From: a bacterium
GTDB taxonomy: Bacteria; Patescibacteriota; Patescibacteriia; Patescibacteriales; UBA12465
Length of the DNA: 64,000 nucleotides
Direction of reading: 5' to 3'
Assembly: GCA_021806615.1 (NCBI GenBank)
Contig: JAJZRB010000001.1
Location: forward strand, 143,201-207,200
A program made the position numbers and the translations under genes. Positions 1 through 19,975 of the stretch are shown here, in pieces; position 1 is the first letter of the stretch, and the number at the start of each line of letters is the position of its first letter. The notes beneath the pieces were generated by a model. That model ran no database searches. It had not been told where the DNA came from and worked only from the letters and a program-made list of their open reading frames with translations.

Positions 1-27
1 TCCTCCTCGGTAATCTGGGGACTGAAT

Positions 28-801
28 TTATAAATCAGAAATTTCTAGAATGAGCGGGTAGTGGTCTGAAATTTCAATTTCTTCAACCGTCATTTTCCGA
101 GCTGACAATCCTTGGCTCAAGAATATGAAATCAATCGCCTCGCCCTTAGGCCGAGTGCTAGGAATATTAAAAATGGCATTGATGTTATTAAAATGCTTAC
201 TGATCAGAGAAATGCTTTCCGTCCTTAAAAGAACATTAAAATCTCCGAGCAGGATACTGGGCATATTTTTCTCCTGTAATCTTTCGAGAATGAATTCGCT
301 TTGCCGGATAGACCGCTCTGAATCCAGTTTATCAGCAGACCAAGTGCCGTGGACATTAGCCACTTGGATGATGCTCCCGCCGACTTCAATATCGCATATT
401 TGCAGAGCGCGGCCGTGATCGTCACCGTTATAAAAATTGGTCCGATCGCGGTCAAATTCATAATTTTTGTGATAAAAATAATTATAGCCGTGGACGATCG
501 GATATTTTGATAAGATCAGCTTGCCTTGCTCGACCATGCCGCCGAAATCTTTGTTTCTTAATCCGGATGGTTCGGTATGCTTATCAGCGACCCATTCGGG
601 AGCGAAAAAATAATAAGGATAATCTTCCCCTAATATCCGCCGAATGGTTTCTTCCGATCGATACAGAGGATGTACGTTTGGATCCAATGGACGGACGACT
701 TCCTGCAAACAGACGATATCCGCGGCTTGAGCCTTCAGATATTCGCCGACTTGCCGGCTGTTATCTATCTTAATACCAATATTAAAGCTGATGATTTTCA
801 T
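28..801 (-). CDS. endonuclease/exonuclease/phosphatase (EEP) family protein
   Basis: 257-aa ORF. The N-terminal MKIISFNI..ADIVCLQEV and C-terminal ..SDHYPL pattern is typical of the EEP/DNase I-like fold. Confidence 0.8.
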   Translation of the reverse strand: MKIISFNIGIKIDNSRQVGEYLKAQAADIVCLQEVVRPLDPNVHPLYRSEETIRRILGEDYPYYFFAPEWVADKHTEPSGLRNKDFGGMVEQGKLILSKYPIVHGYNYFYHKNYEFDRDRTNFYNGDDHGRALQICDIEVGGSIIQVANVHGTWSADKLDSERSIRQSEFILERLQEKNMPSILLGDFNVLLRTESISLISKHFNNINAIFNIPSTRPKGEAIDFIFLSQGLSARKMTVEEIEISDHYPLILEISDL

Positions 802-859
802 ATTATGGCTATTTCCCTATATTAGACTGACATAATTTATTATAGCATTCCCCTCATAC

Positions 860-880
860 AAAAACAGCCCTTTCGGACTG
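860..880 (-). terminator. hairpin plus T-run after the cupin unit
   Basis: Minus-sense CAGTCC-GAAA-GGGCTG followed by TTTTTG. It lies 12 nt downstream of element E copy 1. Confidence 0.6.
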
Positions 881-892
881 TCTCTGTTTAGT

Positions 893-920
893 GAGCTCCT
901 TTTGGAGTTTGGTTATAAAT
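893..920 (-). repeat. 28-bp element E, copy 1
   Basis: gagctccttttggagtttggttataaat, identical to copies at 1409-1436 and 3089-3116. It lies 21 nt after the cupin stop codon. Confidence 0.9.
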
Positions 921-941
921 TTAGATAAATAGAAACTAAGC

Positions 942-1295
942 TTATTCAGTTCTCTCCGTTATTTCTTTATTTGGATCATAAGCGGGGGTATGGACTAAAA
1001 ACATCTTTAATACTCCGTTTATGGATTTATAATCATATTCAATATTTTTAGGAAGAATACAGACGTCCGACTTAGCAACATGAATTATTTCGTTATTAAT
1101 TTCAAATTCGCCCTCGCCGTCGATAATATAATAAATTCTATCACTTTCTGTAGCCTTGGTTTTACCATGACTGCCAGTAACTTCGAAATAGGCAGCGCTT
1201 GCTCTAGGAAATTCTTCTTTGGAGTTGAAGGCCCACCCCTTTAAGCCATTCCAGCCGAACTCTCGCGCATTTTTAAGTGTAAATTTCATATTCAC
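942..1295 (-). CDS. cupin domain protein
   Basis: 117-aa ORF with a single beta-barrel pattern (..YFEVTGSHGKTKATESDRIYYIIDGEGEF..ILPKNIEY..) resembling small cupins. Confidence 0.6.
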   Translation of the reverse strand: MNMKFTLKNAREFGWNGLKGWAFNSKEEFPRASAAYFEVTGSHGKTKATESDRIYYIIDGEGEFEINNEIIHVAKSDVCILPKNIEYDYKSINGVLKMFLVHTPAYDPNKEITERTE

Positions 1296-1374
1296 TTTTT
1301 ATATAAATTACATTTTTATTATATCATTTGAGGTAATTTTTATAAACTTTTCAAAAAGGTGTTTCTAGAGTATC

Positions 1375-1400
1375 AAAAAATGCCCTAAGATTAAGGCATT
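1375..1400 (-). terminator. hairpin plus T-run after the 228-aa ORF
   Basis: Minus-sense AATGCC-(10 nt loop)-GGCATT followed by TTTTTT. Confidence 0.6.
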
Positions 1401-1408
1401 GTTTGTTG

Positions 1409-1436
1409 GAGCTCCTTTTGGAGTTTGGTTATAAAT
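1409..1436 (-). repeat. 28-bp element E, copy 2
   Basis: Perfect copy located 5 nt after the TAG stop of ORF 1442..2128. Confidence 0.9.
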
Positions 1437-1441
1437 TAATA

Positions 1442-2128
1442 CTATTCATAATTAAGAATTATACCTTGCCCTCCTATAACAAAACCATTTCTATTACTTA
1501 AAGTTTGCTTCTTGGGATAATCTGGAACCAAGGTACGCAACAACTCATGAGTTATCTGCCTAATTGCAGCTAATTCTGCTCCTTTCACTGGTATCCATTT
1601 ATCACTGTAATCTCTGGAAACCCAGCCCAATGAATTGCTTCTACTAAGGCTTGCATATTTTTCATTTAATTCAGGGTCTACATGAGAACCGCCGTCTTGA
1701 TTGGCTACCGCAAGGACAATATCTTTGCGACTATAGCTATTCCCCAGCTTGTCATTAAAAATTATTTCACTCCAGTAATTCTCAAAGTCTATATACCCAG
1801 TAATATCGTTGGATGAATCGAAGTTTGGCACATAACCGCCAGCGTCTCCTATGAGTAGCCCGACCAATCCTGCATACCCTCCGACTAGCTGTTGATTGTC
1901 TGAAAGTTTTGGTGGCTTTACACAAGTACTTAAGAATTTAGTATCCTTTAAATTTAACTGACCCAACAATGAGTGTGATTTAAGCGTGTCATGTAAAAGA
2001 ATCCTTATAGTCGTCGCCATTCTTTTTGATTCCGATTCAAAACCTCTATCATACGCCTGGGCGGACAACTTCAAAAATTCAATTTGATCATTTAGCTGAT
2101 TTTGGAGATCGTCTAATGTTTGTTTCAT
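1442..2128 (-). CDS. hypothetical protein (228 aa), coupled to HEPN-like paralog A
   Basis: Long ORF whose start lies 10 nt after the stop of ORF 2139..3002. No family recognised. The C-terminal ..AAIRQITHELLR.. is only Rx3H, so it is not a canonical HEPN motif. Confidence 0.6.
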   Translation of the reverse strand: MKQTLDDLQNQLNDQIEFLKLSAQAYDRGFESESKRMATTIRILLHDTLKSHSLLGQLNLKDTKFLSTCVKPPKLSDNQQLVGGYAGLVGLLIGDAGGYVPNFDSSNDITGYIDFENYWSEIIFNDKLGNSYSRKDIVLAVANQDGGSHVDPELNEKYASLSRSNSLGWVSRDYSDKWIPVKGAELAAIRQITHELLRTLVPDYPKKQTLSNRNGFVIGGQGIILNYE

Positions 2129-2138
2129 AAAACCAATA

Positions 2139-3002
2139 TTATAAACTGACGTGTGGCAAAAAATCTAAAGATATTTTTTTAAATAAAGAAAGAAGATTCC
2201 CCTTTATCATCTTGCAATATTCAAACATGTCTGTACCACTCGGTAATTGAGGATTACGTAATATTTTTTTTCTATTATCTAAAACGAAAAGTTGTAGGCT
2301 ATAGACTTTTGATCGATGGGCGACCATATTGCGTAACTTATGAACCTCATCGATCCAATTATCAATCTCTGTCTCAAAAAGATCAGCTAATTTTCTTTCT
2401 TTGACTCCTTTACTCGCTCGTAAACTGGCGATAGTCTTCTCTCCAGCTTTTTGCCCACCTCTAAATCCGATTATCCATTCCTCTCCATCAAGACATGGGT
2501 AAAATATTTTCAAAAGATGAATTAGTACATCAAGAGAAGAATATACTTGCATTAGAAAGGATTCAAACTCAAACAGAATAACGTCATTAATAAATTCAGT
2601 TTCTGATAAATTCATAGGCAATTTCTCATAAACCGGGGGGACTAAATTTTTTATTTCATTCTCAATTAGGGAAAAACTGTAATTCACGGCTTGCATTTTA
2701 TGTCGGCAGTTTTCAATAGCAATATCCAAATTGTTCATTTTTTTATTATCCTTTAATTTACGTACAAATATGCCATTTAAAATTTTTTGCTCGTCAGAAT
2801 TTAAAACTGAATCTAAATCAGACATGGTTTTATTTACCGATTTATTTAAAACTTCTTTTTCTTCATCACTAATCCTAAAACCATCCATTCCCAAGTCTAT
2901 ATCCGAAAATAAGCCTACCGACTCTCTTCTGTACTGATCAAATCTAGAATCTGATAATAAGAGCTTGTCTCTCATAATGTTATAATAACTATCTTCTGGC
3001 AT
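2139..3002 (-). CDS. HEPN-like (RNxxxH) protein, paralog A
   Basis: The track ORF 2139..3155 was trimmed to Met52 (ATG at 3002). The longer form reads through a terminator hairpin and element E, and the trimmed N-terminus (MPEDSYYNIMRDKLLLSDSRFD) aligns with paralog B (MSRYKIMKDKILFSDRRFD). Shared motifs are ENCRHK, YSxxLIENE, ExESFxxQV, AGExT and LRNMVAHRS (R-N-x3-H). Confidence 0.7.
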   Translation of the reverse strand: MPEDSYYNIMRDKLLLSDSRFDQYRRESVGLFSDIDLGMDGFRISDEEKEVLNKSVNKTMSDLDSVLNSDEQKILNGIFVRKLKDNKKMNNLDIAIENCRHKMQAVNYSFSLIENEIKNLVPPVYEKLPMNLSETEFINDVILFEFESFLMQVYSSLDVLIHLLKIFYPCLDGEEWIIGFRGGQKAGEKTIASLRASKGVKERKLADLFETEIDNWIDEVHKLRNMVAHRSKVYSLQLFVLDNRKKILRNPQLPSGTDMFEYCKMIKGNLLSLFKKISLDFLPHVSL

Positions 3003-3031
3003 ACTATTAATTTTTTTAAAAATTAAAATAC

Positions 3032-3054
3032 AAAAACCCTCATTACGAGGGTTT
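3032..3054 (-). terminator. hairpin plus T-run after HEPN-like paralog B
   Basis: Minus-sense AAACCCTC-GTAAT-GAGGGTTT followed by TTGTATTTT. It is preceded by a second perfect palindrome, GGGGGTTTATAAACCCCC (3064-3081). Confidence 0.65.
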
Positions 3055-3065
3055 CTGTAGTCTGG

Positions 3066-3092
3066 GGGTTTATAAACCCCCGTAAATGGAGC
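3066..3092. repeat. 27-bp imperfect direct repeat, distal copy (DR-L)
   Basis: gggtttataaacccccgtaaatggagc matches 6222-6248 (ggatttataaatccccctatatggagc) at 23 of 27 positions in the same orientation. Confidence 0.7.
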
Positions 3093-3116
3093 TCCTTTTG
3101 GAGTTTGGTTATAAAT
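3089..3116 (-). repeat. 28-bp element E, copy 3
   Basis: Perfect copy. It overlaps the last three codons (P-Y-L) and the TAA stop of ORF 3109..3930. Confidence 0.9.
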
Positions 3117-3930
3117 ATGGCTCGTCGGAAATCCTTTTAAGTTCTGGCGAGACAAAATTGTCTAAAATAGTCTTATATAGATTCAGTAATTTATTGTATA
3201 TATCTTGACAATATCTAAGCACTTCCGTGTTATCAGGCATTAACGGTTTAACTACTTTTCCGCTACCAGATTCATAGACAAAACACGTAAAGCCCTTAAG
3301 CGCGGATCTATGGACTATATTATTACGTAATTCATTTAAATTCTGAATCCAAGTGTCTATTTGTTCATCAAAAAATTCTGCCATTTCAGAATTACCACCT
3401 TTTCTCACGAAATCGGCGGTAGTTTCGCCCGCCCTTCTGTCGCTCTTAAAACTTGCTTTATCATTACCTCTTTCATCAATATAAGGGTACAAGTATTTTA
3501 AAAGCTGCACAATAATATCTAAATTGCCTCGCACTTGAGATACGAATGATTCAGTTTCATTTATAAGCACTTCATTCATTAACTCTGCATATGGAAACAT
3601 CTTATTTTTTATCATTTCGGAATATTCTTCTATCTCCTGTTTAGTCGGCCCAAAGTTAACTTCATTTTCAATTAAAGCTAGAGAATATCTTGCGGCAGCT
3701 AACTTGTGTCTACAATTTTCTACTCTTACTCTTATATCATCTAGTAATTTTGATATTGCGATATGCTTTCCCGTGCCCGCCTCTTTCGTTGTGCGAGGTG
3801 GCCTATAAAACCCCTCTATTGGCATATCAAAAATTTTATTAATCTCCTCATAAACTGTATCAAATCTTCTGTCCGAAAACAGTATTTTGTCTTTCATAAT
3901 TTTATAGCGGCTCATATTAGTAAAAATCAT
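3109..3930 (-). CDS. HEPN-like (RNxxxH) protein, paralog B
   Basis: 273-aa ORF, a divergent paralog of 2139..3002, with LRNNIVHRS (R-N-x3-H), ENCRHK and ETESFVSQV motifs. An alternative start is Met6 at 3915. Confidence 0.7.
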   Translation of the reverse strand: MIFTNMSRYKIMKDKILFSDRRFDTVYEEINKIFDMPIEGFYRPPRTTKEAGTGKHIAISKLLDDIRVRVENCRHKLAAARYSLALIENEVNFGPTKQEIEEYSEMIKNKMFPYAELMNEVLINETESFVSQVRGNLDIIVQLLKYLYPYIDERGNDKASFKSDRRAGETTADFVRKGGNSEMAEFFDEQIDTWIQNLNELRNNIVHRSALKGFTCFVYESGSGKVVKPLMPDNTEVLRYCQDIYNKLLNLYKTILDNFVSPELKRISDEPYL

Positions 3931-3957
3931 CTATACAATAAAAGTCAGATTCCTTAA

Positions 3958-4245
3958 CTACTTGATAAAAGGAATTTTATCTAAAATATATCTTCTTTTT
4001 CTTTCTAACTCCTCGAAAATAAATTTATTTTTTTCTTTAATCTGTAAAATGCGTCCGTCCATAATACTCTGAAGGACCGGCTTTTGCTTCTCTGCCTCTA
4101 TCGCATTGTTTAATTCCTTATACTTAATTTTTAAGTCTCTTTCAATTATAACTACTCGCACATAGGACATTACAACATGAAAAATTGCTAAAACGGCAAA
4201 TAATTTTAAAAAATAATCTACATATTTAAATACAATGGTGAGCAT
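3958..4245 (-). CDS. small membrane protein (N-terminal TM helix plus charged coiled-coil tail)
   Basis: 95-aa ORF, 27 nt upstream of paralog B and 17 nt downstream of ORF 4263..4760. It has a hydrophobic FLKLFAVLAIFHVVMSYVRVVII segment followed by a K/E-rich helix. Confidence 0.5.
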   Translation of the reverse strand: MLTIVFKYVDYFLKLFAVLAIFHVVMSYVRVVIIERDLKIKYKELNNAIEAEKQKPVLQSIMDGRILQIKEKNKFIFEELERKRRYILDKIPFIK

Positions 4246-4262
4246 ATTTCAAAAGCTAAATT

Positions 4263-4760
4263 CTAGGTTCTTTTTTGCCAAAACGCTACGATAGCTAAAA
4301 TTATTGTCCCAACTGCCATTATCCAGGTGCCGAGCACCAGCCAGAAATTCATTTTACGCTGATTTTTCAGAGAATCAATGGCAGTATATTCTGCAGTTGA
4401 TATTTCATAACCACACAAATTACAGACAACGGTGGACGGATATGATTTTTCAGAAGTTTGTACAAAGGGCATGCGCTGGATAAATTTATGCTCACATCCA
4501 TTAACCTTAGATTGATTTTTTATAATACTAATTTCTCTCACCCCGAACTCTGTTATTCTTATGGCTCCATCTTCTCCCCAAATTATTTTTCCGCTATCAG
4601 CCATTCGGCGCATAAGAGCCTTAAATTTAACCATCTGAACATAATCACCACCTTTAACAAACTGATTTTCAAGTTTAGGATAAATTTGATTAAATTGAGG
4701 GCCGACTTCTTCGTTAATAATTTTAATTTGTTCTAAAATTTGCATCTCTTTTTCTTCCAT
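4263..4760 (-). CDS. C-terminally membrane-anchored protein with a CxH...CxxC zinc-ribbon-like motif
   Basis: 165-aa ORF with ..NGCEHKF..(22 aa)..VVCNLCGYE.. and a terminal TM helix FWLVLGTWIMAVGTIILAIVAFW. No family recognised. Confidence 0.55.
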   Translation of the reverse strand: MEEKEMQILEQIKIINEEVGPQFNQIYPKLENQFVKGGDYVQMVKFKALMRRMADSGKIIWGEDGAIRITEFGVREISIIKNQSKVNGCEHKFIQRMPFVQTSEKSYPSTVVCNLCGYEISTAEYTAIDSLKNQRKMNFWLVLGTWIMAVGTIILAIVAFWQKRT

Positions 4761-4820
4761 ATTTATAAACAGATTAACGCTTAAATTATTTTGATGTACT
4801 TATATCATCCCAATCATCGG

Positions 4821-5276
4821 TTATTTGCCACTTGGGTTATTATCTAATATTTTATAGGACAAATTTACATCCAACGGTGTCTCCGAAGCAACTTCAAATT
4901 TAGTACCTTTTTTTTGTAATATTCTATAGTAATATCTCCCACCCTCGGTTATCTGTATGCCCTGCATGTTTGTTATACTTCTTAATCTCTTTTCACCTTT
5001 TTTTGCCTTTAGGCCAACGGAAAATTCATTTAAAACTTCTCCCTTAGGATCCACGAGATCTATCTTTATTTCAGCTAAATTTTCCCTTGTATCGTCTTCG
5101 ATAGTCCAAAAACTAATAAGCTGAAGATTAAAAGGAATAACTAGCTTATCATTTTTAGACATCTTTTTCCTATCAATCATTAACTGCACTTCTTCAATAC
5201 AGTTAAATAAACTAAGGAGATTGGTTTGAGCATCTATTGATGATTTTTCACAAATTATTGACCAAATGTTTTTCAT
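4821..5276 (-). CDS. hypothetical protein (151 aa, predicted all-beta)
   Basis: ORF starting 11 nt after the XRE gene stop. No motif recognised. Confidence 0.5.
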   Translation of the reverse strand: MKNIWSIICEKSSIDAQTNLLSLFNCIEEVQLMIDRKKMSKNDKLVIPFNLQLISFWTIEDDTRENLAEIKIDLVDPKGEVLNEFSVGLKAKKGEKRLRSITNMQGIQITEGGRYYYRILQKKGTKFEVASETPLDVNLSYKILDNNPSGK

Positions 5277-5287
5277 ATTTTTATTAT

Positions 5288-5698
5288 TTATTTAGTAGAT
5301 ATATTATAAGCCTCATGCGATAAAACGTTGTCCCTTAATCTATCAGCGGTGTTATTTATCGTCCCACCGCCTGCGAATATAATGTTATATGGGATATTAA
5401 AATCTAAAATACTACTCCAGCTTTTATAACTAAAATTTAAAACACTTGCTATTCGATTAAGCAGTGCAAAACCAATATTAACATCTCCGCTCTCAACTCT
5501 TGAAATAACCTTCTGAGTCGTTTGAGCTTCTTTAGCTAACTTTTGCTGACTCATACCAAGAGCTTCTCTGGTATTATAAATCTCAACTCCCAACCTTATT
5601 CTTTCCATTGCTTCTCTTGAAAATTTTTCAAAATACTTACCCTTTCTGGCCTCTGCCATCGGATCAATATTTAATTTTTTGTTATTCATATTTTTCAT
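5288..5698 (-). CDS. XRE-family helix-turn-helix protein (HigA-like antitoxin candidate)
   Basis: 136-aa ORF. The HTH_3-type segment is ..LGMSQQKLAKEAQTTQKVISRVESGDVNIGFALLNRIA... It overlaps the upstream toxin-like gene by 17 nt. Confidence 0.75.
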   Translation of the reverse strand: MKNMNNKKLNIDPMAEARKGKYFEKFSREAMERIRLGVEIYNTREALGMSQQKLAKEAQTTQKVISRVESGDVNIGFALLNRIASVLNFSYKSWSSILDFNIPYNIIFAGGGTINNTADRLRDNVLSHEAYNISTK

Positions 5699-6107
5699 AA
5701 TTTTTTGGATTTAATTTAAAAATATTTAAATACTTCTCACCAATCTTGTTTTGTTTATCAACTTTTTTCTTCTCTCTGTCGGTATCATAATTGACAGGCT
5801 TCTCAAAAGCATGAAGAAGAACTATTTTTTCTTGATGTCGAAAATAAAGAATTCTAATAACTGTTGTTTCGTCTTTGGGATTCAATATTTCAAAACAACT
5901 ATAGCCATGTAATGGTTTAGAAATTGGAGGAGTCGGCCTACCTTCGTTGCCCTTAACATGCTGTATCTTAGCATCTATATTAGCTAGTATTTTCTGCTTT
6001 CTTTTAACAACTGCTTCTTTATCTCCTTTGTTTTCTCGATATTGTTTTAAATATTCCTTTACCGGGCAGTTTTTTGAACCTTTATCATAAAAATAAACAG
6101 GTTCCAT
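5682..6107 (-). CDS. RelE/HigB-like toxin of the Gp49 (DUF891) type
   Basis: 141-aa ORF. ..PVKEYL..AKIQHV..KPLHGYSCFEI..IRILYFRHQEKIVLLHAFEK.. follows the Gp49/RelE pattern. The toxin-first order matches higBA-type pairs. Confidence 0.7.
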   Translation of the reverse strand: MEPVYFYDKGSKNCPVKEYLKQYRENKGDKEAVVKRKQKILANIDAKIQHVKGNEGRPTPPISKPLHGYSCFEILNPKDETTVIRILYFRHQEKIVLLHAFEKPVNYDTDREKKKVDKQNKIGEKYLNIFKLNPKNYEKYE

Positions 6108-6136
6108 ATTTACATGATTAAATTGATTCTAACCTT

Positions 6137-6164
6137 ATTATATCCTATTGGATATAATTGTCAA
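6137..6164 (-). promoter_or_regulatory. near-consensus sigma70-type promoter with an embedded palindromic operator
   Basis: Minus-sense TTGACA (6164-6159), a 16-nt spacer, then TATAAT (6142-6137). A perfect inverted repeat TTATATCC-n4-GGATATAA (6138-6157) spans the spacer and the -10 element. Confidence 0.7.
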
Positions 6165-6172
6165 TACCAATT

Positions 6173-6200
6173 ACAAAAGCCCTCCCAAAATGGGAAGGCT
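6173..6200 (-). terminator. terminator of the tmRNA/tRNA-Leu/tRNA-Gly unit
   Basis: Minus-sense AGCCTTCCC-ATTTT-GGGAGGGCT (9-bp stem including one G-U pair) followed by TTTTG. Confidence 0.75.
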
Positions 6201-6221
6201 CTTGTAAACACTGGGACTTAT

Positions 6222-6248
6222 GGATTTATAAATCCCCCTATATGGAGC
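6222..6248. repeat. 27-bp imperfect direct repeat, tRNA-proximal copy (DR-R)
   Basis: It matches 3066-3092 at 23 of 27 positions. Positions 6243-6248 are the GCTCCA 3' terminus of tRNA-Gly. Confidence 0.7.
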
Positions 6249-6317
6249 GGGTAACGGGAATTGAACCCGTCTCTCGACCTTGGCAAGGTCGCATAATAGC
6301 CACTATACGATACCCGC
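6243..6317 (-). tRNA. tRNA-Gly(GCC), CCA encoded
   Basis: Hand-folded cloverleaf with acceptor GCGGGTA/TACCCGC, anticodon arm CGACC-TTGCCAA-GGTCG and T arm ACGGG-TTCAATT-CCCGT. Confidence 0.9.
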
Positions 6318-6336
6318 AAATTTGAAAAGCTGAAAG

Positions 6337-6420
6337 TGCCGCGGGCGGGAATCGAACCCGCACTGTATCGCTACAACTGGATTTTAAGTCCAGCGCGTCT
6401 GCCAGTTCCGCCACCGCGGC
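6337..6420 (-). tRNA. tRNA-Leu(TAA), long variable arm, no encoded CCA
   Basis: Acceptor GCCGCGG/CCGCGGC, anticodon arm CTGGA-CTTAAAA-TCCAG, T arm with GGTTCGATTCC. Confidence 0.9.
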
Positions 6421-6433
6421 TCTTTTGTCAATG

Positions 6434-6822
6434 TGGAGATGATGGGAGTTGAACCCATGTCCAGCCGGCTTACCTAAATACATTTACAAGATTAGGCCGA
6501 TTTCGTTTGTTTTAACTTTAATCATCAAAACCGGACGAAAAGCGACTAAAGCGATCTTTCTTTTGTTTCGACATACCCCGGAAAGAGCAAAATATATCTA
6601 TCCTCATGTTTATGACACCGGAAATGCGACTATGAAGACTCATCGCGCCCGATGGTTACGGCTTATTTTTATTAGGCCATAACTGGAGCATAGCTCGGAG
6701 TTAACCAAGTAAATGCTCTTGCCATAGATTTGGCATTTGTGTTTTTTTAGCCAGTTTGGCGTGATGACTAAGCACGTCCTGAATATTTAGATAGAATCCA
6801 GCTGTCGATTCCTTTCATCCCC
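6434..6822 (-). ncRNA. ssrA: tmRNA
   Basis: The 5' GGGGATG pairs with the 3' CATCTCC and includes G3-U70. The T arm is ATGGG-TTCAACT-CCCAT with discriminator A. An internal reading frame ends in TAATAA. It lies 26 nt downstream of smpB. Confidence 0.85.
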
Positions 6823-6848
6823 CTCCTGTCTGCCCCGGCCACGGGGCT

Positions 6849-7307
6849 TTAACGCCTTTTTGTTAAAGACCGCAAACTGCGCTCTACTTCTCGTTTTTTT
6901 ATCGCCTCGCGCTTATCATATTTCTTCTTTCCGCGCGCTACGGCGAACTCCAATTTCAGAAAACTATGATTAGTATATATTTGGAGAGGTATCAGTGTCA
7001 AGCCCTCGGTTTGCTGCCGGCCGATAAGGCGAGCGATCTCTCCCCGCTTCAATAATAACTTCCGTTCACGCCGGGGATCGTAGTCTGGTAGGGGACCGGC
7101 CTGCTTATAAGGCGAGATCTGGCAACCGATTAAATAAAGCTCCGGCCGGCTGTTTTTACGGCGCACGCTTATGAAGCTGCCCTTGAGGCTGAGTTGCCCG
7201 GCGCGGACTGCTTTGACTTCGTGGCCATACAGAACCAGGCCCGCCTCATATTTTTCCAGGAGCTCATAATCAAAGCTAGCTTTCTTGTTTTGCGCCAGTG
7301 GGGCCAT
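6849..7307 (-). CDS. smpB: SsrA-binding protein
   Basis: 152 aa with the ..NKKASFDYELLEKYEAGLVLYGHEVKA.. signature. It is adjacent to the tmRNA. Confidence 0.95.
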   Translation of the reverse strand: MAPLAQNKKASFDYELLEKYEAGLVLYGHEVKAVRAGQLSLKGSFISVRRKNSRPELYLIGCQISPYKQAGPLPDYDPRRERKLLLKRGEIARLIGRQQTEGLTLIPLQIYTNHSFLKLEFAVARGKKKYDKREAIKKREVERSLRSLTKRR

Positions 7308-10669: not shown

Positions 10670-11998
10670 TTATTCTTTTTTAGTTTTTTTTAAATTTTTA
10701 TTTTTGGTCTTCTTTTCGATCGGCGCCTTTTCTTCGGTTTGCTCTGCTGCCGCTTCTGGCACAGTCTCAACTTCAGCTTCTGCCGGATTGGACTGGACCC
10801 CCTCCTCAGCCTCGTCGCTGCTTAAAACCTTTTTCTCACCATCCTCTGAAGCTTCTATAATATCTATTTTCCAGCCAGTCAATCTCGCAGCTAAGCGGAC
10901 ATTCTGTCCGGCCTTACCAATAGCTAGAGATAGTTTATCAGGAGAAACTTTGACTATAGCTTTATGCTCCACATTATCAAGCTCTATAGACGCGACTTTA
11001 GCCGGAGCCAAGGAATTAGCTATGAATTTGGCAGAGTCTTCATTATATTCAATAATATCTATCTTTTCCCCTCCCAATTCACTGATGATAGTCTGGACGC
11101 GAGAGCCTCTCTGGCCGACGCAGGAACCGACCGGGTCGACATTATCAGCGTCCGTCCAAATAGCAACCTTAGACCGTGATCCTGCCTCCCGAGCTACGGC
11201 TTTGATTTCCACCAAGCCATTCGCTATTTCTGGAATTTCTAAATAAAAGACTTTGCGTAAAATTTCTTCGGAGCGGCGGGACAAGACTATTTCCGGCCCC
11301 TTATGCCCCTCACGCACTTCCTTTATAAAGACCTTGATCCGATCATTAGGATTATAGCGTTCGCTGTAAATTTGTTCTTCGGCCGGCAAGATGCCTATAG
11401 CCTTGCCTAAGTCAACAAAAACAAAGCGCCCTTCACGCCGTTGGACGATACCGGAAACAACCTCTCTTTCCTTGCCTTTGAATTCGCTAAATACCATATC
11501 GCGCTCCATCTCCCTCAACTTCTGAATGATAACCTGCTTGGCGGTCTGGGCGGCCATGCGGCCATAACTTTCTGGAATGGGCAAATCAGTCACTATCTCA
11601 TCGCCGATCTGGGCGTCATGCTTTAAGATCAGGGCCTCCTTGATTTGGATATCGGTTTTGGGATTGAATTTTTTCTTGTCTTCTTCGCCAGAGCTCTCTT
11701 CAATAAAAACTTCCGGACGGCCTTCTTCGCGCGGCGGCTCCTTCGGAGCCGGGCTATAAAGATTCTGCAACATTTCGGCTTCTTCTTGTTCTGGCAGATT
11801 ATCTACTACGGTTTTGACATCAAAAATCTGCGAATGGCCGGTCGCCGGATCAAATTTTACTCGTATATTCTGATTTCGTTCCCCATAATCTTTGCGGTAA
11901 GCGGCTGCTAAAGCGAGCTCGACCGCGCTGATAACGGATTGATAGTCTAAATTCTTCTCTTCGCACAATTGTTTTATAGCGCTGCTTATTTCGGACAT
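10670..11998 (-). CDS. nusA: transcription termination/antitermination factor NusA
   Basis: 442 aa with a NusA N-terminal domain, an S1 segment and two KH-like segments (..GSRVQTIISELGGEKIDII.., ..GKAGQNVRLAARLTGWKIDI..). Confidence 0.93.
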   Translation of the reverse strand: MSEISSAIKQLCEEKNLDYQSVISAVELALAAAYRKDYGERNQNIRVKFDPATGHSQIFDVKTVVDNLPEQEEAEMLQNLYSPAPKEPPREEGRPEVFIEESSGEEDKKKFNPKTDIQIKEALILKHDAQIGDEIVTDLPIPESYGRMAAQTAKQVIIQKLREMERDMVFSEFKGKEREVVSGIVQRREGRFVFVDLGKAIGILPAEEQIYSERYNPNDRIKVFIKEVREGHKGPEIVLSRRSEEILRKVFYLEIPEIANGLVEIKAVAREAGSRSKVAIWTDADNVDPVGSCVGQRGSRVQTIISELGGEKIDIIEYNEDSAKFIANSLAPAKVASIELDNVEHKAIVKVSPDKLSLAIGKAGQNVRLAARLTGWKIDIIEASEDGEKKVLSSDEAEEGVQSNPAEAEVETVPEAAAEQTEEKAPIEKKTKNKNLKKTKKE

Positions 11999-12127
11999 AT
12001 GGATAAAAATTAGATATTAAGACAAAAAGCTAATTGTAAGAACAACTAGCTTTCTATATACTATGATACCATAATCTGTAATTTTGTCAAAACGGAACAT
12101 TCAGCGATCAATCGAACAGAATAAAGC

Positions 12128-12559
12128 TCAATACGGCGTATAAGTCTGATAGTCTACGGAATTATTCGCCGCTCGGCTAAGGATAATTACCGTGAACCGG
12201 GTAATCGCCCAAGCCGCCAGGATAATAATCAAGCCGATAACCGCATTGCGTAGCATATCCAGGGCTCTTTGCGTTTTTTCCTCATTACCGGCAGCTGTCA
12301 TATAAAGGAACCCGGCGTAGATCGTAAAACCTAAGAAGATAATCCCTAAAAAACCCAGGACTACATTAATCACTCTAGCCACGGTAGTCCTGATATCGGT
12401 CGGCGTAGTATTGCCCATGGACGCACCGATTTCCTTTAATCCGGTCTGGCTATTAACCAGACTATTATCGGCCCAGGCCGGCGGAATGCTGGTTAAAAAC
12501 GCCAGGCTTAAAAACGTCAATAAAATAAAGGACAAAACATGCTTGTTAGTGAGGCGCAT
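12128..12559 (-). CDS. small secreted/membrane protein resembling TrbC/VirB2-type (T4SS pilin-like) proteins common in CPR genomes
   Basis: 143 aa with a signal-like N-terminus and two TM helices separated by ..MTAAGNEEKTQRALDML... Confidence 0.5.
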   Translation of the reverse strand: MRLTNKHVLSFILLTFLSLAFLTSIPPAWADNSLVNSQTGLKEIGASMGNTTPTDIRTTVARVINVVLGFLGIIFLGFTIYAGFLYMTAAGNEEKTQRALDMLRNAVIGLIIILAAWAITRFTVIILSRAANNSVDYQTYTPY

Positions 12560-12635
12560 AGCTTGACAATTAAAATATGATATAATTATACTAGACCTTT
12601 ATATTATATAAAAATACCTCTAAAAACACAAGAAA

Positions 12636-14111
12636 ATGAGCTTGGCGAAAAAAGTGGCCCACAATACCCTGATCCAAATATTCGGTAAAATCATTTCCAC
12701 GGTTTTAGGTCTTTTCGCCATCGCTCTTATCACTCGCTACTTAGGGCGCAGCGGCTTTGGCGAATATACGACCGTTCTTACTTTCCTGACCTTCTTCGCG
12801 GTTACGGCTGATTTCGGCCTGACCCTGGTGACCGTACAGATGATTAGCGGACGCGATTGGCCGGAAAATAAGGTTCTTAATAATCTCTTCGCCTTGCGCC
12901 TTGTTTCTTCTATCGCCTGCCTGATCTTAGCGCCGATAATCATAAACTTTTTTCCCTATAGCGCCGCGATAAAATTCGGCGTCTTCATTACTTTCATCTC
13001 TTTCCTTTTCCCGGCTCTTAACCAAGTAATTATCGGGCTATTCCAAAAAAGGTTAAGTATGAGCCGGGATACTATCGCCGAAGCTCTCAGCCGCCTGGTC
13101 CTGATCTCCGGCATCATCTTAACCGAAAGGTGGCAAGCGGGCTTGAACGGTATTCTCTTAGCTACGGTAGCTTCGGCTTTCACTAGCTTTATCTTCCACT
13201 ATTTCTTTTCTCTGAAATTCGCCTTCATCAAATTAGAATTTGACTGGTTGGTTTGGAAACAGATAATTTCCAAAGCATGGCCGCTGGCTATTACTATCGT
13301 CTTGAATCTGATCTATCTGCGGGCCGACACCCTTCTCCTGTCTCTCTTCCGCAATATCGAAGAAGTCGGCTTATACGGAGCAACGTACCGCGTTCTTGAT
13401 GTCTTGACGACCATCCCTTTCATGTTCGCCGGACTGATACTGCCTATTTTGACCGTTGCGTGGCTGGATAAACAATCGGCCTACTTCCAAAAAGTCCTGC
13501 AGAAATCTTTTGACGTCATGGCTATGATTGCCATCCCTCTTGTCGTCGGAGCACAATTTTTAAGCCGGCCGGTGATGACCTTCGCGGCCGGACGGGATTT
13601 CGCGGAATCTGGACGGATCTTACAGGTTCTGATCTTCGCCGTAGCCGCCATTTTCTTAGGAACTATGTTTTCGCATGCCGTCATCGCCTTAGATAAGCAG
13701 AAGACCATGATCGGTTTTTATGTCTTTGCCAGCTTAAGCTCCCTTATCGCCTATCTTATCCTTATTCCTCGTTTTTCTTATTTCGGCGCAGCGGCGGTCA
13801 CGATTTACAGTGAAACCATCATCGCTATTTTTTCCGCCTACTGCGTATTCAAATACAGCCGCTTCTTCCCGAACTTCAAGGTGGTCTTTAAATCCCTGCT
13901 TAGCGGGCTGGCCATGGGGGTATTCCTTTACTTTTTAGGCAACAAGTATCAAGATACTCTGGTCCGCCTCTTTGCCGTCATAATTAGCTCTTCTTTAATT
14001 TACGGTTTCTCCCTCTATATATTCGGGGGGATTAAGCAGTCGGAGCTAGCCGTTATCTTCAAAAGGAAAACGGCCAGCAGCGAGCCGAGTTATGGCGGCC
14101 CTAAGTTATAA
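12636..14111 (+). CDS. polysaccharide/lipid-linked oligosaccharide flippase (MOP superfamily, Wzx/MurJ-like)
   Basis: 491-aa ORF, hydrophobic throughout (about 12-14 TM segments). A TTGACA-containing promoter region lies upstream. Confidence 0.7.
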   Translation: MSLAKKVAHNTLIQIFGKIISTVLGLFAIALITRYLGRSGFGEYTTVLTFLTFFAVTADFGLTLVTVQMISGRDWPENKVLNNLFALRLVSSIACLILAPIIINFFPYSAAIKFGVFITFISFLFPALNQVIIGLFQKRLSMSRDTIAEALSRLVLISGIILTERWQAGLNGILLATVASAFTSFIFHYFFSLKFAFIKLEFDWLVWKQIISKAWPLAITIVLNLIYLRADTLLLSLFRNIEEVGLYGATYRVLDVLTTIPFMFAGLILPILTVAWLDKQSAYFQKVLQKSFDVMAMIAIPLVVGAQFLSRPVMTFAAGRDFAESGRILQVLIFAVAAIFLGTMFSHAVIALDKQKTMIGFYVFASLSSLIAYLILIPRFSYFGAAAVTIYSETIIAIFSAYCVFKYSRFFPNFKVVFKSLLSGLAMGVFLYFLGNKYQDTLVRLFAVIISSSLIYGFSLYIFGGIKQSELAVIFKRKTASSEPSYGGPKL

Positions 14112-14145
14112 GCTGCCTATTGAATTTTACTTGAACCATAATCAT

Positions 14146-14919
14146 ATGAAGCCAAATCCTGTTTTTAATCCGGATATTATCGCCGAAACCGCCGATTATT
14201 TGATAATAAATAAGCCGGCCGGTTTAGCGGTCCACGGGGGCGGCAATTTACAAGAGGCTACCCTGGCTGACTGGCTGATCCTTAATTATCCAAAAATAAG
14301 AAAAATCGGCGACGATCCGGCACGGCCCGGCTTAGTCCACCGCTTAGATAAAGACGTCAGCGGGCTTATGGTCATAGCCAAAAATCAAAAAAGTTTCAAC
14401 GATCTAAAGGAACAATTCAAAGATAGGAGCGTTAACAAAGAATATACCGCCTTGGTCTACGGCCGCTTGGCCAAAGACGAGGGCTTGATCGATTTCCCGA
14501 TCACCCGTTCTCGATCCGGACATAAGATGGCGGCTCTCCCGGCCAATACCGCCGAACTTTTAAGCCGCCGCCATCCGCGCGGACGCGATCAAGGGAATAT
14601 TGAAAGCTGGTTAAAATCTAGAGGCGCTTTGACTAAATTTACGGTTTTAAAAAGATTCGTAAATTATACCCTCTTACGGGTTAATATCAAAACAGGCCGG
14701 ACTCACCAGATCCGAGTCCATTTTTTTGCTTTAGGCTATCCATTGGTCGGCGACGACCTATATAATACTAAGAAAACCAAAGAAAAAAACAAAAAATTAG
14801 CGTTAAACAGGGTTTTTTTGGTAGCTGATCATCTCTCTTTCCGTGATTTAAAGGGCCAAAAACAACATTTTTCCCTCCCCCTTCCGTCTGAATTGGCCGC
14901 TGTCTTGCCGGCTCATTAA
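14146..14919 (+). CDS. RluA-family pseudouridine synthase
   Basis: HRLDKDVSGLMV catalytic motif and ..GRTHQIRVH... The start was moved to the ATG at 14146, because the track start at 14092 overlaps the flippase gene. Confidence 0.85.
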   Translation: MKPNPVFNPDIIAETADYLIINKPAGLAVHGGGNLQEATLADWLILNYPKIRKIGDDPARPGLVHRLDKDVSGLMVIAKNQKSFNDLKEQFKDRSVNKEYTALVYGRLAKDEGLIDFPITRSRSGHKMAALPANTAELLSRRHPRGRDQGNIESWLKSRGALTKFTVLKRFVNYTLLRVNIKTGRTHQIRVHFFALGYPLVGDDLYNTKKTKEKNKKLALNRVFLVADHLSFRDLKGQKQHFSLPLPSELAAVLPAH

Positions 14920-15017
14920 AGAATCTCTCTGAAAAAACGTGCAAATTTTGACGTTCCTATTTATTTTTACTATAATAAGGAGTGATATTTAAAAAAATCT
15001 AATAATTTTAAAAAATT

Positions 15018-16037: not shown

Positions 16038-16062
16038 AAACCACTCCTGGAAAAGAGGATAC

Positions 16063-16091
16063 AAAAAGACGGCTCTCGTAGCCGTCTTTTT
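16063..16091. terminator. bidirectional hairpin terminator
   Basis: AAAAAGACGGCT-CTCG-TAGCCGTCTTTTT lies between convergent genes. Confidence 0.7.
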
Positions 16092-16118
16092 AAAACCGTA
16101 TTTTTTAAGAGTCTATCT

Positions 16119-16448: not shown

Positions 16449-16467
16449 AAATTTATCTATTTAATTA

Positions 16468-16707: not shown

Positions 16708-16784
16708 GCTCTTATTATACCATACCCCTATGGGGTGTCAAGAGAGACAATTTTAATATATAATAAATAAAAAAATATACTTTT

Positions 16785-17495: not shown

Positions 17496-17539
17496 AACTA
17501 ATAGCCAAATATCTGCTTAGCTAAATTAGACCCCCCCCC

Positions 17540-19324: not shown

Positions 19325-19410
19325 TGGTTATAATACTATTGACAAAACATGTAAATAATTATAAAATCAAACGAATAAATAGTTAATATCACAAATACGG
19401 AAGGAATAAA

Positions 19411-19692: not shown

Positions 19693-19733
19693 ATCAAAGC
19701 ATTTCATCCACTATCCTCTAACCGGAGACAACA

Positions 19734-19940: not shown

Positions 19941-19975
19941 AATTCGATAACCATCCGCTTCAAGCAGATGGTTTT

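Follow-up and report, generated by a model that had tools for sequence, protein, structure and literature searches.

A putative array of integrase-less cassettes, each closed by a conserved 28-bp element, behind tRNA-Gly in a Falkowbacteria-like genome

The window, a 64,000-nucleotide stretch of a Falkowbacteria-like (CPR) genome, carries a low-GC island (31-37% GC against 45-50% in the flanks) and an array that spans from tRNA-Gly to maf. The parts are given below in gene direction, that is from high to low coordinates. The term cassette is used for a leader, the genes behind it and a closing 28-bp element, E.

6849-7307, minus strand: smpB (SmpB family match), upstream of tRNA-Gly on the same strand
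6433-6822, minus strand: tmRNA, upstream of tRNA-Gly on the same strand
6336-6420, minus strand: tRNA-Leu, upstream of tRNA-Gly on the same strand
6243-6317, minus strand: tRNA-Gly(GCC) (ARAGORN, Rfam); it ends in GCTCCA (6243-6248), to which the array is anchored
6222-6248, minus strand: right repeat copy, comprising GCTCCA (tRNA 3' end), a 5-nt spacer and the first arm of hairpin R (R-R variant)
6171-6242, minus strand: cassette 3 leader, with hairpin R (about 6212-6238) and an intrinsic terminator (6207-6171)
6137-6164, minus strand: promoter of the six-gene operon, perfect sigma-70-type (TTGACA-16-TATAAT, 12/12 matches)
3109-6107, minus strand: cassette 3 cargo, six genes
5682-6107, minus strand: Gp49/HigB-like gene, cassette 3
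5288-5698, minus strand: HTH_3 antitoxin-like gene, cassette 3
4821-5276, minus strand: 151-aa ORF, cassette 3
4263-4760, minus strand: 165-aa ORF, cassette 3
3958-4245, minus strand: 95-aa ORF, cassette 3
3109-3930, minus strand: HEPN-like B gene with an RNNIVH motif, cassette 3
3087-3116, minus strand: E copy 3 plus CA (E itself 3089-3116), right end of cassette 3
3066-3092, minus strand: left repeat copy, comprising GCTCCA (end of E3), a spacer and the first arm of hairpin R (R-L variant)
3029-3086, minus strand: cassette 2 leader, with a perfect 18-bp palindrome GGGGGTTTATAAACCCCC (3064-3081) and a terminator (3059-3029)
1442-3002, minus strand: cassette 2 cargo, two genes
2139-3002, minus strand: HEPN-like A gene, cassette 2 (weak Abi_2/AbiD matches)
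1442-2128, minus strand: gene for a 228-aa protein, cassette 2
1409-1436, minus strand: E copy 2, right end of cassette 2
942-1408, minus strand: cassette 1, with a leader containing a terminator (1400-1379), and with a promoter-like site (1346-1318)
942-1295, minus strand: cupin-like gene, cassette 1
893-920, minus strand: E copy 1, right end of cassette 1
28-801, minus strand: endonuclease/exonuclease/phosphatase-family (EEP) gene, distal to the last E

From its sequence, cassette 3 appears to run from 6242 down to 3087 (3156 bp), with cassette 2 next in line, and its E3 plus CA terminates in GGAGCTCCA, the same last six nucleotides as tRNA-Gly. HEPN-B, whose stop codon falls within E3, is 32% identical to HEPN-like A and belongs to a family with only 10 members in a collection of 5.8 billion proteins; in the related locus L024 a homologue (58% identical) forms a single-gene cassette behind tRNA-Gly. 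The DNA of the cassette 2 leader folds at -7.0 kcal/mol (z -3.4). At the distal end, E copy 1 gives way at GCTC to ACTAAACAGAGACAG and a terminator hairpin (about 858-892). An R-like remnant (ATTTATAAATTCAGTCCCCAGATTAC) follows the stop codon of the EEP gene, a homologue of which in L012 itself has E behind it. Across the arrays, smpB, tmRNA and tRNAs make up one flank, and maf, EEP or other genes the other.

The original prediction took GGGTTTATAAACCCCCGTAAATGGAGC (3066-3092) and GGATTTATAAATCCCCCTATATGGAGC (6222-6248) for a 27-bp imperfect direct repeat left by insertion beside a tRNA. The repeat itself is borne out, with 23/27 positions identical in direct orientation at a distance of 3156 bp. 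Such a match is not common here: with the right copy as query, 0/2000 dinucleotide shuffles of 1-6221 reached 23/27 (maximum 21), and when all 27-mers of 1-6320 were compared with one another, 23 was reached in 1/100 shuffles and, in the real sequence, solely by this pair and three pairs of E. The placement was also correct. Because ARAGORN puts tRNA-Gly(GCC) at 6243-6317 on the minus strand, the TGGAGC that ends the right copy (6243-6248) is the GCTCCA 3' end of that tRNA, and the left copy does run into E copy 3 (3089-3116), overlapping its first four bases. Both copies contain an AT-rich palindrome and have terminators adjacent, but a chance resemblance in AT-rich sequence, or a generic terminator similarity unconnected with boundaries, is left with a negligible probability, being refuted by the shuffles and by the conservation of the homologous module at the same junction across species. 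The further claim that the copies enclose exactly one promoter-to-terminator unit stands only in part: the perfect promoter, the six genes and E3 do lie between them, whereas the unit's own terminator (3059-3029) is just beyond the left copy and the terminator inside (6207-6171) is that of the tRNA operon.

It is the meaning of the repeat that has to be revised. In a gapped alignment the homology does not stop at 27 nt but takes in the terminator hairpin as far as TTTTGTA (~75-85 nt), and the whole cassette 3 leader (6171-6242) is homologous to the leader at 3029-3086. Each copy of the 27-bp repeat consists of a 6-nt core and the 21 nt with which a cassette's leader begins; the two leaders, of the neighbouring cassettes 3 and 2, are diverged paralogues and not a duplication produced by insertion. 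This leader alignment largely refutes a classical att scar, in which the 27 bp would be a core duplicated by a single integrase-bearing island on entering tRNA-Gly. Such a scar would explain the geometry, with an AT-rich unit enclosed by a repeat that reaches into the tRNA 3' end, and a Xer-like tyrosine integrase does abut the same tRNA-Gly in locus L025. However, the copies differ at 4/27 positions, two of the differences being compensatory within the hairpin; identity at the junction is limited to GCTCCA(T); of the tRNA the repeat covers only six nucleotides, its remainder lying on the island side; both copies fall in a leader family seen at many other cassette starts, where it is joined to unrelated genes in other genomes; and an integrase is absent from the unit and from beside the array. 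I therefore consider this explanation highly improbable.

Cassette ends are defined by E, not by the 27-mer. E measures 28 bp (ATTTATAACCAAACTGCAAAAGGAGCTC in gene direction), and the window together with 13 related loci yielded 26 distinct instances of it. Its boundaries are sharp: every position except position 16 is at least 85% conserved, the flanks are unconserved, and most copies are 27-28/28 identical even between lineages with just 60-69% identity in trigger factor. In all these loci E stands behind an ORF and in the orientation of that ORF, with a TAA immediately before it in 11 of the 26 instances, and in L013 the ORF-E unit occurs five times in succession. Beyond the three array copies, all of which share a C16 variant, E was not found in the 64-kb window at up to 7 mismatches. 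A 473-kb contig has just two matches to the E pattern, both within its array, and the viral contigs searched for E gave none. The three copies in the 64-kb window all belong to the array, a distribution unlike that of a dispersed intergenic repeat or terminator family (REP-, BIME- or uptake-sequence-like). The E consensus lacks dyad symmetry and folds no better than shuffles, in which it is unlike typical tyrosine recombinase core sites, and no sequence complementary to E was found downstream of it. Each unit closes with GCTC(CA), the end of the tRNA. These 4-6 nt, against a usual att core of at least 15 nt, are all that E and tRNA-Gly have in common; the other 22 nt of E are unmatched in the tRNA, and the tRNA-Gly bases left of the core are unlike E.

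What lies behind tRNA-Gly in one genome lies behind E in another. In relatives, sequences of ~75 nt recognizable as leaders (GCTCCA, a hairpin and an intrinsic terminator) follow either the tRNA-Gly 3' end or E, and the switch between the two contexts falls precisely at GCTC(CA). The R leader is behind tRNA-Gly in the window (R-R variant), L010, L014, L024 and L001, and behind E in the window (E3), L011 and L013 (twice); the relative of the cassette 3 leader in L013 comes after the E copy at 4692. The X leader is behind tRNA-Gly in L005 and L019 and behind E in L014, and the ACTAAACAGAGACAG leader directly follows tRNA-Gly in L025 and E in the window, L005, L010, L019 and L024. Since tRNA-Gly and E share only 4-6 nt, homology cannot have made these junctions. 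At the other end of the unit, a gene and its E move jointly while the sequence after E varies (the 311-aa gene in L014 and L004), and the 97.5% identity between L006 and L009 ends where E ends.

The insertion reading calls for relatives in which tRNA-Gly is followed directly by the sequence of the left copy, and these were seen. Ca. Falkowbacteria GW2011_GWF2_43_32 (L003/L010) has tRNA-Gly, then the exact left-copy sequence (27/27) and its terminator, and L024 has the same direct joining to left-copy-type sequence. In L001, a short, 99.9%-identical contig, tRNA-Gly is followed by TTTACGGGG, of the left-copy type. This is the only exact empty-site evidence from a near-identical strain; it comprises the terminal 9 nt of a short de Bruijn contig, and a chimera is conceivable, since L024-like species share 35 nt of the tRNA. 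A full-length empty junction was not seen in conspecific genomes, nor was an excised circle. Conspecific strains with flanks 98% identical (L019/L020/L023) do differ in content, and the differing stretch reaches exactly from the tRNA end to E, as expected from serial stacking of cassettes at tRNA-Gly. Identity breaks at the GCTCCA of tRNA-Gly and returns at E2, and the interval holds 768 bp with one different cassette in these strains against 4804 bp in the window. The E at that junction differs from the window's E2 at 3/28 positions and the downstream cassette is the same; this E therefore belongs to the upstream cassette. The distal cassettes (cupin-E1, with cassette 1 at about 98% identity, and EEP) are common to all and the difference is tRNA-proximal, which fits the proposal that the newest cassette is nearest the tRNA. 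Together with L010, L024 and L001, these strains thus display presence/absence polymorphism with breakpoints exactly at the repeats, and the 3156-bp segment behaves as the discrete insertion unit that had been predicted. All strain-level differences observed could have moved by homologous recombination. In the window, L005, L010, L014, L019 and L024 tRNA-Gly is intact and the array starts from its last base. Seven contigs (L001, L002, L004, L006, L011, L021 and L022) begin or end in tRNA-Gly, at its end or inside an array, and multiple haplotypes in the populations would thus fit.

I put the probability at roughly 60% that the region is an array of integrase-less mini-elements of the form leader-genes-E, which were added site-specifically at tRNA-Gly in trans and then exchanged between strains. 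A rather unlikely alternative dispenses with dedicated recombination. E and the leaders would then be conserved for a function in an accessory or defence locus that is hypervariable, be it termination, insulation, the mRNA 3' end or the binding of a regulator. DNA taken up by the cell would replace genes of this locus through homologous recombination anchored in tRNA-Gly, E and the leaders, and the rare tRNA-leader and E-leader junctions would come from microhomology (GCTCCA) events. Each breakpoint does lie at the edge of a conserved block, as expected of exchange between blocks. Leaders are joined to unrelated genes, the arrays have no detectable recombinase, and C16 in all three window copies of E fits intragenomic gene conversion. 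DprA is present in the window genome, so natural transformation is plausible. However, several distinct leader families each have tRNA-Gly in front in some loci and E in others, with the change at the same 4-6 nt. Homologous recombination cannot yield that switch, and microhomology is unlikely to have struck one position again and again. A 28-mer with a purely regulatory role should also turn up elsewhere in the genome, yet E keeps to the arrays. Finally, some E copies sit between two terminator-like hairpins: three (in L005 and in L013 at 2929 and 4692) lie beyond an extra such hairpin and, in my reading, therefore favour a role at the DNA level over one in the 3'-UTR.

Single-strand DNA transposition is a further alternative. 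Here the cassettes would be non-autonomous IS200/IS605-type (HUH) elements mobilised by a Y1 transposase, which would recognise a left-end hairpin and insert them 3' of a pentanucleotide-like GCTC(C/A) without target duplication. The single orientation, the lack of a target duplication, the short fixed sequence 5' of the insertion and the hairpin 5-12 nt inside every cassette left end all agree with this, and IS200-like Y1 transposase genes (135 aa; Pfam E = 1e-24) lie beside E in two arrays. But that IS, in L006 and L009, has ends of its own, one directly after TTTTATAA and the other directly after GGTGGTAGTTTATT, 7 nt upstream of E. It also occurs without any E in four other genomes (L015-L018) and is thus an independent insertion. 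Moreover, tnpA was not found in the window or the remaining arrays, the left-end hairpins differ in sequence and the E end has no conserved hairpin; the units have neither Y1 element ends as their own ends nor subterminal hairpins at both. This explanation is quite improbable.

If the cassettes are inserted site-specifically, the enzyme would have to come from outside the array, acting in trans or since lost. Pfam and NCBIfam searches found no recombinase genes in or beside any array examined, and a crude motif scan of the window, with Pfam on ten ORFs, likewise found none. The Xer-like integrase of L025 is only a candidate for the recombinase of the arrays, and E is absent from the 20 kb of L025 in which that integrase adjoins tRNA-Gly.

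Under the preferred reading, of integrase-less cassettes added in trans, a cassette would consist of a leader (a short spacer with a hairpin and/or an intrinsic terminator), in some cases its own promoter, one to six genes and the 28-bp E. On circularisation E would abut the leader and create an attP-like site, in which the core and P arm come from E and the P' arm from the leader. This site would recombine, conservatively and site-specifically, with GCTC(CA), either at the end of tRNA-Gly (6243-6248, the proposed crossover core in the window) or in a resident E. The outcome would be an inserted cassette, a regenerated tRNA and an E joined to the former downstream sequence. Cassette 3 would then be the most recent addition in the window strain. 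Cassettes may additionally pass from strain to strain by ordinary homologous recombination anchored in the tRNA, E and the leaders.

Among known systems, the tandem ssrA-specific genomic islands of Dehalococcoides (McMurdie et al., 2011; PMC3146451) are alike in several respects. Several islands follow one another behind the gene for a small stable RNA, with direct repeats of the 3' end of that gene as their limits, an extra conserved motif unmatched in the RNA gene lies upstream of each repeat (15 bp there, 22 bp of E here), many lack an integration module, and content differs among strains. In Dehalococcoides, however, the ssrA repeat is 20 bp, insertion is in the T-loop, islands measure kilobases to tens of kilobases and 16 of them carry a serine-recombinase integration module beside attL (PMC3146451), whereas here no more than the terminal 4-6 nt of tRNA-Gly form the shared core, units measure 0.5-3.2 kb, often with a single ORF, and no examined cassette carries a recombinase. 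Cis-mobilizable elements (CIMEs) likewise accrete site-specifically at the 3' ends of tRNA or protein genes (reviewed in PMC5704250, which cites Pavlovic et al., 2004 for the accretion). They too keep attL and attR without an integrase, lie in tandem at one attachment site and are mobilised by the integrase of another element. CIMEs differ in that they derive from ICEs or IMEs by decay, mostly occur singly or in pairs at a site and have att cores that replicate target-gene sequence. The CPR bacteria here have arrays of up to at least five minimal cassettes with a uniform 28-bp end site, and are not known to have a cognate ICE or IME.

The size and layout of the cassettes recall integrons and CALINs, the latter being attC clusters without an integrase (e.g. 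Cury et al., 2016). Both have co-oriented, mostly single-ORF cassettes, each with a recombination-site-like element right behind the stop codon, a newest cassette apparently beside a fixed primary site, cargo of orphan, toxin-antitoxin and defence-like genes, and a site as uniform within a lineage as the VCRs of Vibrio. In contrast to integrons, however, neither intI or attI nor a tyrosine recombinase lies beside the array, and the primary site is a tRNA 3' end. E lacks the R''/L''-L'/R' inverted repeats, and its TTATAAC and GTTATAA do not fit the RYYYAAC and GTTRRRY boxes of attC. Some cassettes here have their own promoter, and all start with a terminator. In dif-type sites a 6-bp spacer separates two 11-bp arms that are imperfectly dyad-symmetric, and successive pdif sites alternate in orientation. 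Xer/dif modules (pdif modules, IMEX) share with the present arrays a conserved 28-bp site flanking small gene modules and, on the preferred reading, a recombinase encoded elsewhere in the genome, but all E copies point in one direction, and the corresponding arms of E, ATTTATAACCA and GAGCTCCTTTT (right arm reverse complement), show no symmetry by eye. Thus, if the cassettes were added as proposed, the array of this Falkowbacteria-like genome would combine tandem accretion at an att site with cassettes of integron-like size.

The direct repeat at tRNA-Gly is real. On the plus strand, 3066-3092 (GGGTTTATAAACCCCCGTAAATGGAGC) and 6222-6248 (GGATTTATAAATCCCCCTATATGGAGC) lie 3156 bp apart in direct orientation and are identical at 23 of 27 positions, a score that none of 2000 dinucleotide shuffles of 1-6221 reached with the right copy as query (maximum 21) and that 1 of 100 shuffles reached when 1-6320 was compared all against all. 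The right copy ends in the GCTCCA terminus of tRNA-Gly(GCC), because that gene occupies 6243-6317 on the minus strand, and the left copy takes in the initial four bases of E3, one of three exact copies of a 28-nt repeat, element E. The coordinates bear out the original prediction on both points. All genes of the array lie on the minus strand, in cassettes numbered 3, 2 and 1 from tRNA-Gly outward, each consisting of a leader (hairpin and/or intrinsic terminator), its genes and a closing E. In gene direction the locus reads:

Minus strand: smpB, tmRNA, tRNA-Leu and tRNA-Gly, in this order, ahead of the array
6207-6171, minus strand: terminator of leader R-R (the right-copy variant of leader family R), preceded by its hairpin
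6164-6137, minus strand: perfect promoter, TTGACA-16-TATAAT
Minus strand: six genes in the order Gp49/HigB-like, HTH_3, 151 aa, 165 aa, 95 aa, HEPN-like B
3089-3116, minus strand: E3, after HEPN-like B
3064-3081 and 3059-3029, minus strand: 18-bp palindrome and terminator of leader R-L (the left-copy variant)
Minus strand: HEPN-like A and a 228-aa gene, after leader R-L
1409-1436, minus strand: E2, followed by a terminator (1400-1379) and a cupin gene
893-920, minus strand: E1, followed by a terminator and a gene for an EEP-family nuclease

The island has a GC content of 31-37% against 45-50% in its flanks. An identical Logan contig, L002, extends it leftwards with maf, a DUF3232 gene and a glycosyltransferase/phosphorylase-like gene (Glyco_transf_5 and Phosphorylase hits). 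Directly past the EEP stop, at 1-45 on the minus strand, ATTTATAAATTCAGTCCCCAGATTAC looks like the opening 8 nt of E joined to the right-hand half of a leader of type R, and no terminator stands between the EEP stop and maf; this may be what remains of an E/leader junction decaying at the array's distal end. Some 28-30 kb from the array lie dnaN (Pfam; 33945-36728 region) and, where dnaA is expected, a 465-aa ORF. The array would thus lie close to the replication origin, and its orientation is that of the minus-strand genes.

The repeat had been read as an att-like scar bracketing the six-gene operon, and here the prediction parts from the evidence. The gapped similarity of the two copies continues past the terminator hairpin as far as TTTTGTA, and the 27-mer consists of a 6-nt core and the opening 21 nt of the leaders, paralogous to each other, of the neighbouring cassettes 3 and 2; it is therefore not a duplication made by insertion. 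The shuffle tests together with the leader alignment (A1) reject both a chance match and a classical att scar. What survives is a discrete inserted unit, running from 6242 down to 3087 (3156 bp) between the proposed crossover points, and a stack of cassettes at tRNA-Gly. Two of the four mismatches between the copies are compensatory in hairpin R (GGGTTT..AAACCC versus GGATTT..AAATCC), which is retained through other changes in other genomes, as in GGGGATT-TAT-AATCCCC of L011. Indels misalign the hairpin in A1, and it was judged by single-sequence folds; of six variants, three gave folds clearly better than those of shuffles, and two are degenerate.

Element E, rather than the 27-mer, is the defining feature of the arrays. 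Its 22-nt core retrieved one genome record, Ca. Falkowbacteria GW2011_GWF2_43_32 (L003), and a 23-nt pattern with one N retrieved 11 metagenome stretches (L004-L014) and nothing from viral contigs. In gene direction the consensus is ATTTATAACCAAACTGCAAAAGGAGCTC; across 26 distinct instances, conservation is 85% or higher at all positions but 16 (G17/C7/A2) and does not extend into the flanks. An ORF precedes E in every case and in the same orientation, its TAA abutting the start of E in 11 of the 26; in L013 the ORF-E unit is repeated five times running. Within about 10 nt past E come a hairpin and T-run of variable sequence. E is confined to the arrays: the 64-kb window holds no further copy with up to 7 mismatches allowed, and a 473-kb Falkowbacteria contig has only two pattern matches, both inside its array. 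All three window copies carry C16, and most others G16, including the first-cassette E of the conspecific L019; outside the window, C16 copies are those leading into the leader family named by its sequence, ACTAAACAGAGACAG. The C16 shared within the window may reflect gene conversion in this genome.

Several simpler identities for E were tried and rejected. As a hairpin, the window C16 variant folds weakly (CTCC-AAAA-GGAG) and the consensus G16 variant does not; on a reading of the sequence, parsing E as a T-arm plus acceptor fails, only GCTCCA being common to tRNA-Gly, and hexamer spacing misfits an opposite-strand promoter. Rfam at permissive thresholds, run on window 1-7000 and the L005 locus, returned only tmRNA and tRNAs, with nothing for E, R or the GC-rich element X. 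The R palindrome had one unrelated hit in phages. The 17-nt end of tRNA-Gly matches 32 viral contigs from other hosts, mostly as whole tRNA genes or ordinary att fragments, and E is absent from all 32.

In five species-level lineages (the window species, L010, L005, L014 and L024) the array follows straight after tmRNA-tRNA-Leu-tRNA-Gly, and L006 begins within a tRNA-Gly leading into an array. Trigger factor identity is 60-69% among four of the five, L024 being left out. Between tRNA-Leu and tRNA-Gly, L024 has a 220-aa ORF with no family hit (11038-11700); the gap elsewhere is 11-23 nt in loci with both tRNAs mapped. Alignment A1 defines a module of about 75 nt (GCTCCA, a 5-nt spacer, hairpin R, AGAYTACAGAA, terminator, TTTTTGT), whose similarity ends exactly at GCTCCA upstream and after TTTTTGT downstream. 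This module follows tRNA-Gly in the window (R-R), L010 and L014, with the same junction in L024 and L001, and follows E at window E3, in L011 and twice in L013. Likewise, leader X follows tRNA-Gly in L005 and L019 and E in L014, and the ACTAAACAGAGACAG leader follows tRNA-Gly in L025 and E in the window (E1), L005, L010, L019 and L024. A single leader family is joined to unrelated genes (HEPN-A, an AAA ATPase, 311-aa, 239-aa and 269-aa genes, and the HEPN-B homologue of L024). Conversely, the 311-aa gene and its E are constant in L014 and L004 while the sequence after E differs, and L006 and L009 hold 97.5% identity to the very end of E, beyond which they differ. tRNA-Gly and E are interchangeable left partners, with the switch at GCTC(CA). 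The full CCA is not encoded by tRNA-Gly in L005 and L006 (GCTCAAA...) and is encoded (GCTCCA) in the window, L010, L014, L019 and L024, so that only GCTC is common to all junctions.

Just past the terminator that follows tRNA-Gly or E, three lineages carry a GC-rich element (~65% GC) of 160-175 nt (L005 native about 5169-5340, L014 7346-7520, L019 11118-11280). RNAalifold gave compensatory changes at 19 of 44 pairs, from only three sequences, and Rfam gave no hit in L005, the sole locus scanned. Its last 17 nt in L005 and L014 duplicate the 3' end of tRNA-Gly (ATTCCCGTTACCCGCTC), and the element may represent a structured RNA not yet described or the relic of an att site.

If natural transformation brought in the DNA, homologous recombination between conserved blocks would account for every block-edge breakpoint as well as for the passage of cassettes from strain to strain, and a DprA gene at 51671-52810 makes natural-transformation machinery plausible. 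However, it leaves unexplained the repeated interchange of tRNA-Gly and E at a 4-6-nt core and the confinement of E to the arrays; since the two partners have only GCTC(CA) in common, the junctions were not made by homologous recombination.

Strains of the same species differ at this site. Homologues of SmpB at 99% identity led to three long conspecific contigs (L019, L020 and L023). Metagenomes with this species are SRR13189623, SRR33270670, SRR13300764 and ERZ27237538/541/563/587. L019 is 98.1% identical to the window through the GCTCCA of tRNA-Gly and 98.3% identical again from E2 on; between these points it has 768 bp (leader X, a 123-aa gene and an E variant of its own) where the window has the 4804 bp of cassettes 3 and 2. 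Of the 28 positions of the junction E, 3 differ from E2, yet the same leader comes downstream, so E belongs to the upstream cassette. The two strains share the distal cupin-E1-terminator-EEP-maf and differ in the tRNA-proximal part, which fits addition at the tRNA end and the predicted stacking with the newest cassette nearest the tRNA. As for an empty site, L001, with one SNP in 2.5 kb outside the junction, ends in tRNA-Gly plus TTTACGGGG, of left-copy type, as predicted for a genome without the 3156-bp unit; this match spans only the terminal 9 nt of a de Bruijn contig, which may follow a chimeric path because the last 35 nt of the tRNA are common to L024-like species. In L010 and L024 left-copy sequence also comes right after the tRNA (27/27 in L010), but the cargo that follows is different. 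Seven independent contigs break in or at the end of tRNA-Gly or within the array (the ends of L001, L021 and L022, the starts of L002, L004, L006 and L011), as population-level heterogeneity at the junction would cause.

These junctions could be produced by an attP of the form P-O-P', in which E would be the P arm plus core O, the leader P', and the tRNA-Gly end B plus O. The element would carry a conserved leader at its left, variable cargo, and at its right a conserved E ending in the core; integration would give tRNA(O)-leader-cargo-E(O)-old flank, and units would stack up with each further integration. Such a model would account for one leader family on unrelated genes with no second crossover required. 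For cassette 3 it predicts a circle junction of CCAAACTCCAAAAGGAGCTCCA followed by TATAGGGGGATTTATAAATCC, and an empty junction of TTCCCGTTACCCGCTCCA followed by TTTACGGGGGTTTATAAACCCCCAGACTACAG, running on into HEPN-A. The model is weakened because E has neither dyad symmetry nor a stable fold, atypical of simple tyrosine-recombinase core sites.

No recombinase is encoded by the cassettes of the arrays examined, nor was one found in the window by a motif scan and Pfam on ten ORFs; the enzyme would therefore have to act in trans or have been lost. A relative with 88% identical SmpB, L025 (contig Ga0265297_10001650), has at 11031-20459 an island whose first gene, for a Xer-like tyrosine integrase of 390 aa, abuts tRNA-Gly in convergent orientation; the island also carries a 1217-aa LexA_DNA_bind protein and an OLD-like ATPase. 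The best NCBIfam match of this integrase is XerA/integron-integrase-like, under the cut-off; the 20 kb of L025 sequence examined (the distal end of the island lies outside) holds no E, and the island has no homology to the E-bearing L007 from the same metagenome. The integrase is a candidate only.

An HUH/IS200-type mechanism would draw on the Y1 transposase genes adjoining E in L006 and L009. The genes encode a 135-aa protein with an HIH motif and have a TTG start; the IS200/IS605-family elements to which they belong (L006 2300-2913; L009 1-192 and 500-1111 in reverse-oriented coordinates) have subterminal hairpins and a hairpin that occludes the RBS. In both arrays, however, the IS is inserted after TTTTATAA and stops 7 nt before E, and the same element is found without E in Parcubacteria/Pacebacteria genomes elsewhere. 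Four other IS copies without E rule out E as part of an IS200-like element.

The boldest reading, to which I give roughly one chance in three, is that Falkowbacteria-like CPR bacteria own an undescribed gene-cassette capture system, integron-like without IntI or attC, in which the tRNA-Gly 3' end would be the fixed acceptor (attI equivalent), the asymmetric 28-bp E plus hairpin leader the cassette site (attC/attP equivalent), and the recombinase would be encoded elsewhere. Cassettes with or without a promoter would be added one after another at the tRNA end, bringing in orphan, toxin-antitoxin and HEPN/Abi-like genes. In the window, HEPN-like A (2139-3002) and B (3109-3930) are paralogous at 32% identity, and both have an Rx4H-type motif (LRNMVAHRS and LRNNIVHRS, respectively). 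Their family has only 10 members in a 5.8-billion-protein collection, most unnamed and the only named hit from Patescibacteria, and L024 carries a HEPN-B homologue as cassette cargo. Exact-protein look-ups for the 228-aa, HEPN-A, HigB-like and EEP proteins matched solely in the same strain (L002), and PADLOC found nothing in the cargo beyond weak AbiD and generic HTH hits.

Among known systems, the arrays fail as integrons on intI and attC architecture and as IS200/IS605 on element ends, and E fails as a Xer/dif site on dyad symmetry. By analogy, the closest described case is that of the tandem ssrA-specific islands of Dehalococcoides, whose boundaries are 20-bp repeats of ssrA with, ahead of each, a conserved 15-bp motif that does not match ssrA; many lack an integration module and are interpreted as cis-mobilizable elements (PMC3146451). 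Unlike in those islands, the core in the present arrays is minimal, 4-6 nt at the extreme end of the tRNA, and the 28-bp end site is uniform; the cassettes, of 0.5-3.2 kb and often a single ORF, are integron-like in size, and none of the arrays examined has an integration module. The arrays are probably a form of tandem att-site accretion (CIME and accretion are defined in PMC5704250) with integron-like granularity, and the literature searched, on integrons and islands in CPR/Falkowbacteria, gave no account of such arrays.

CPR/Patescibacteria have tiny genomes with few recognised mobile elements, and little is understood of how accessory and defence genes reach them. Here a compact array recurs at one tRNA gene, its 28-bp end site is kept across genus-level distances, and its cassette content differs between strains otherwise ~98% identical. 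If a dedicated recombinase is responsible, this would be a new system of site-specific gene capture, and its DNA site, being short, defined and testable, could be used as a tool and a strain-typing marker. If not, it would be a clear natural example of conserved terminator/site modules channelling gene turnover by homologous recombination. In both cases, E offers an easy way to search these uncultivated bacteria for hypervariable islands.
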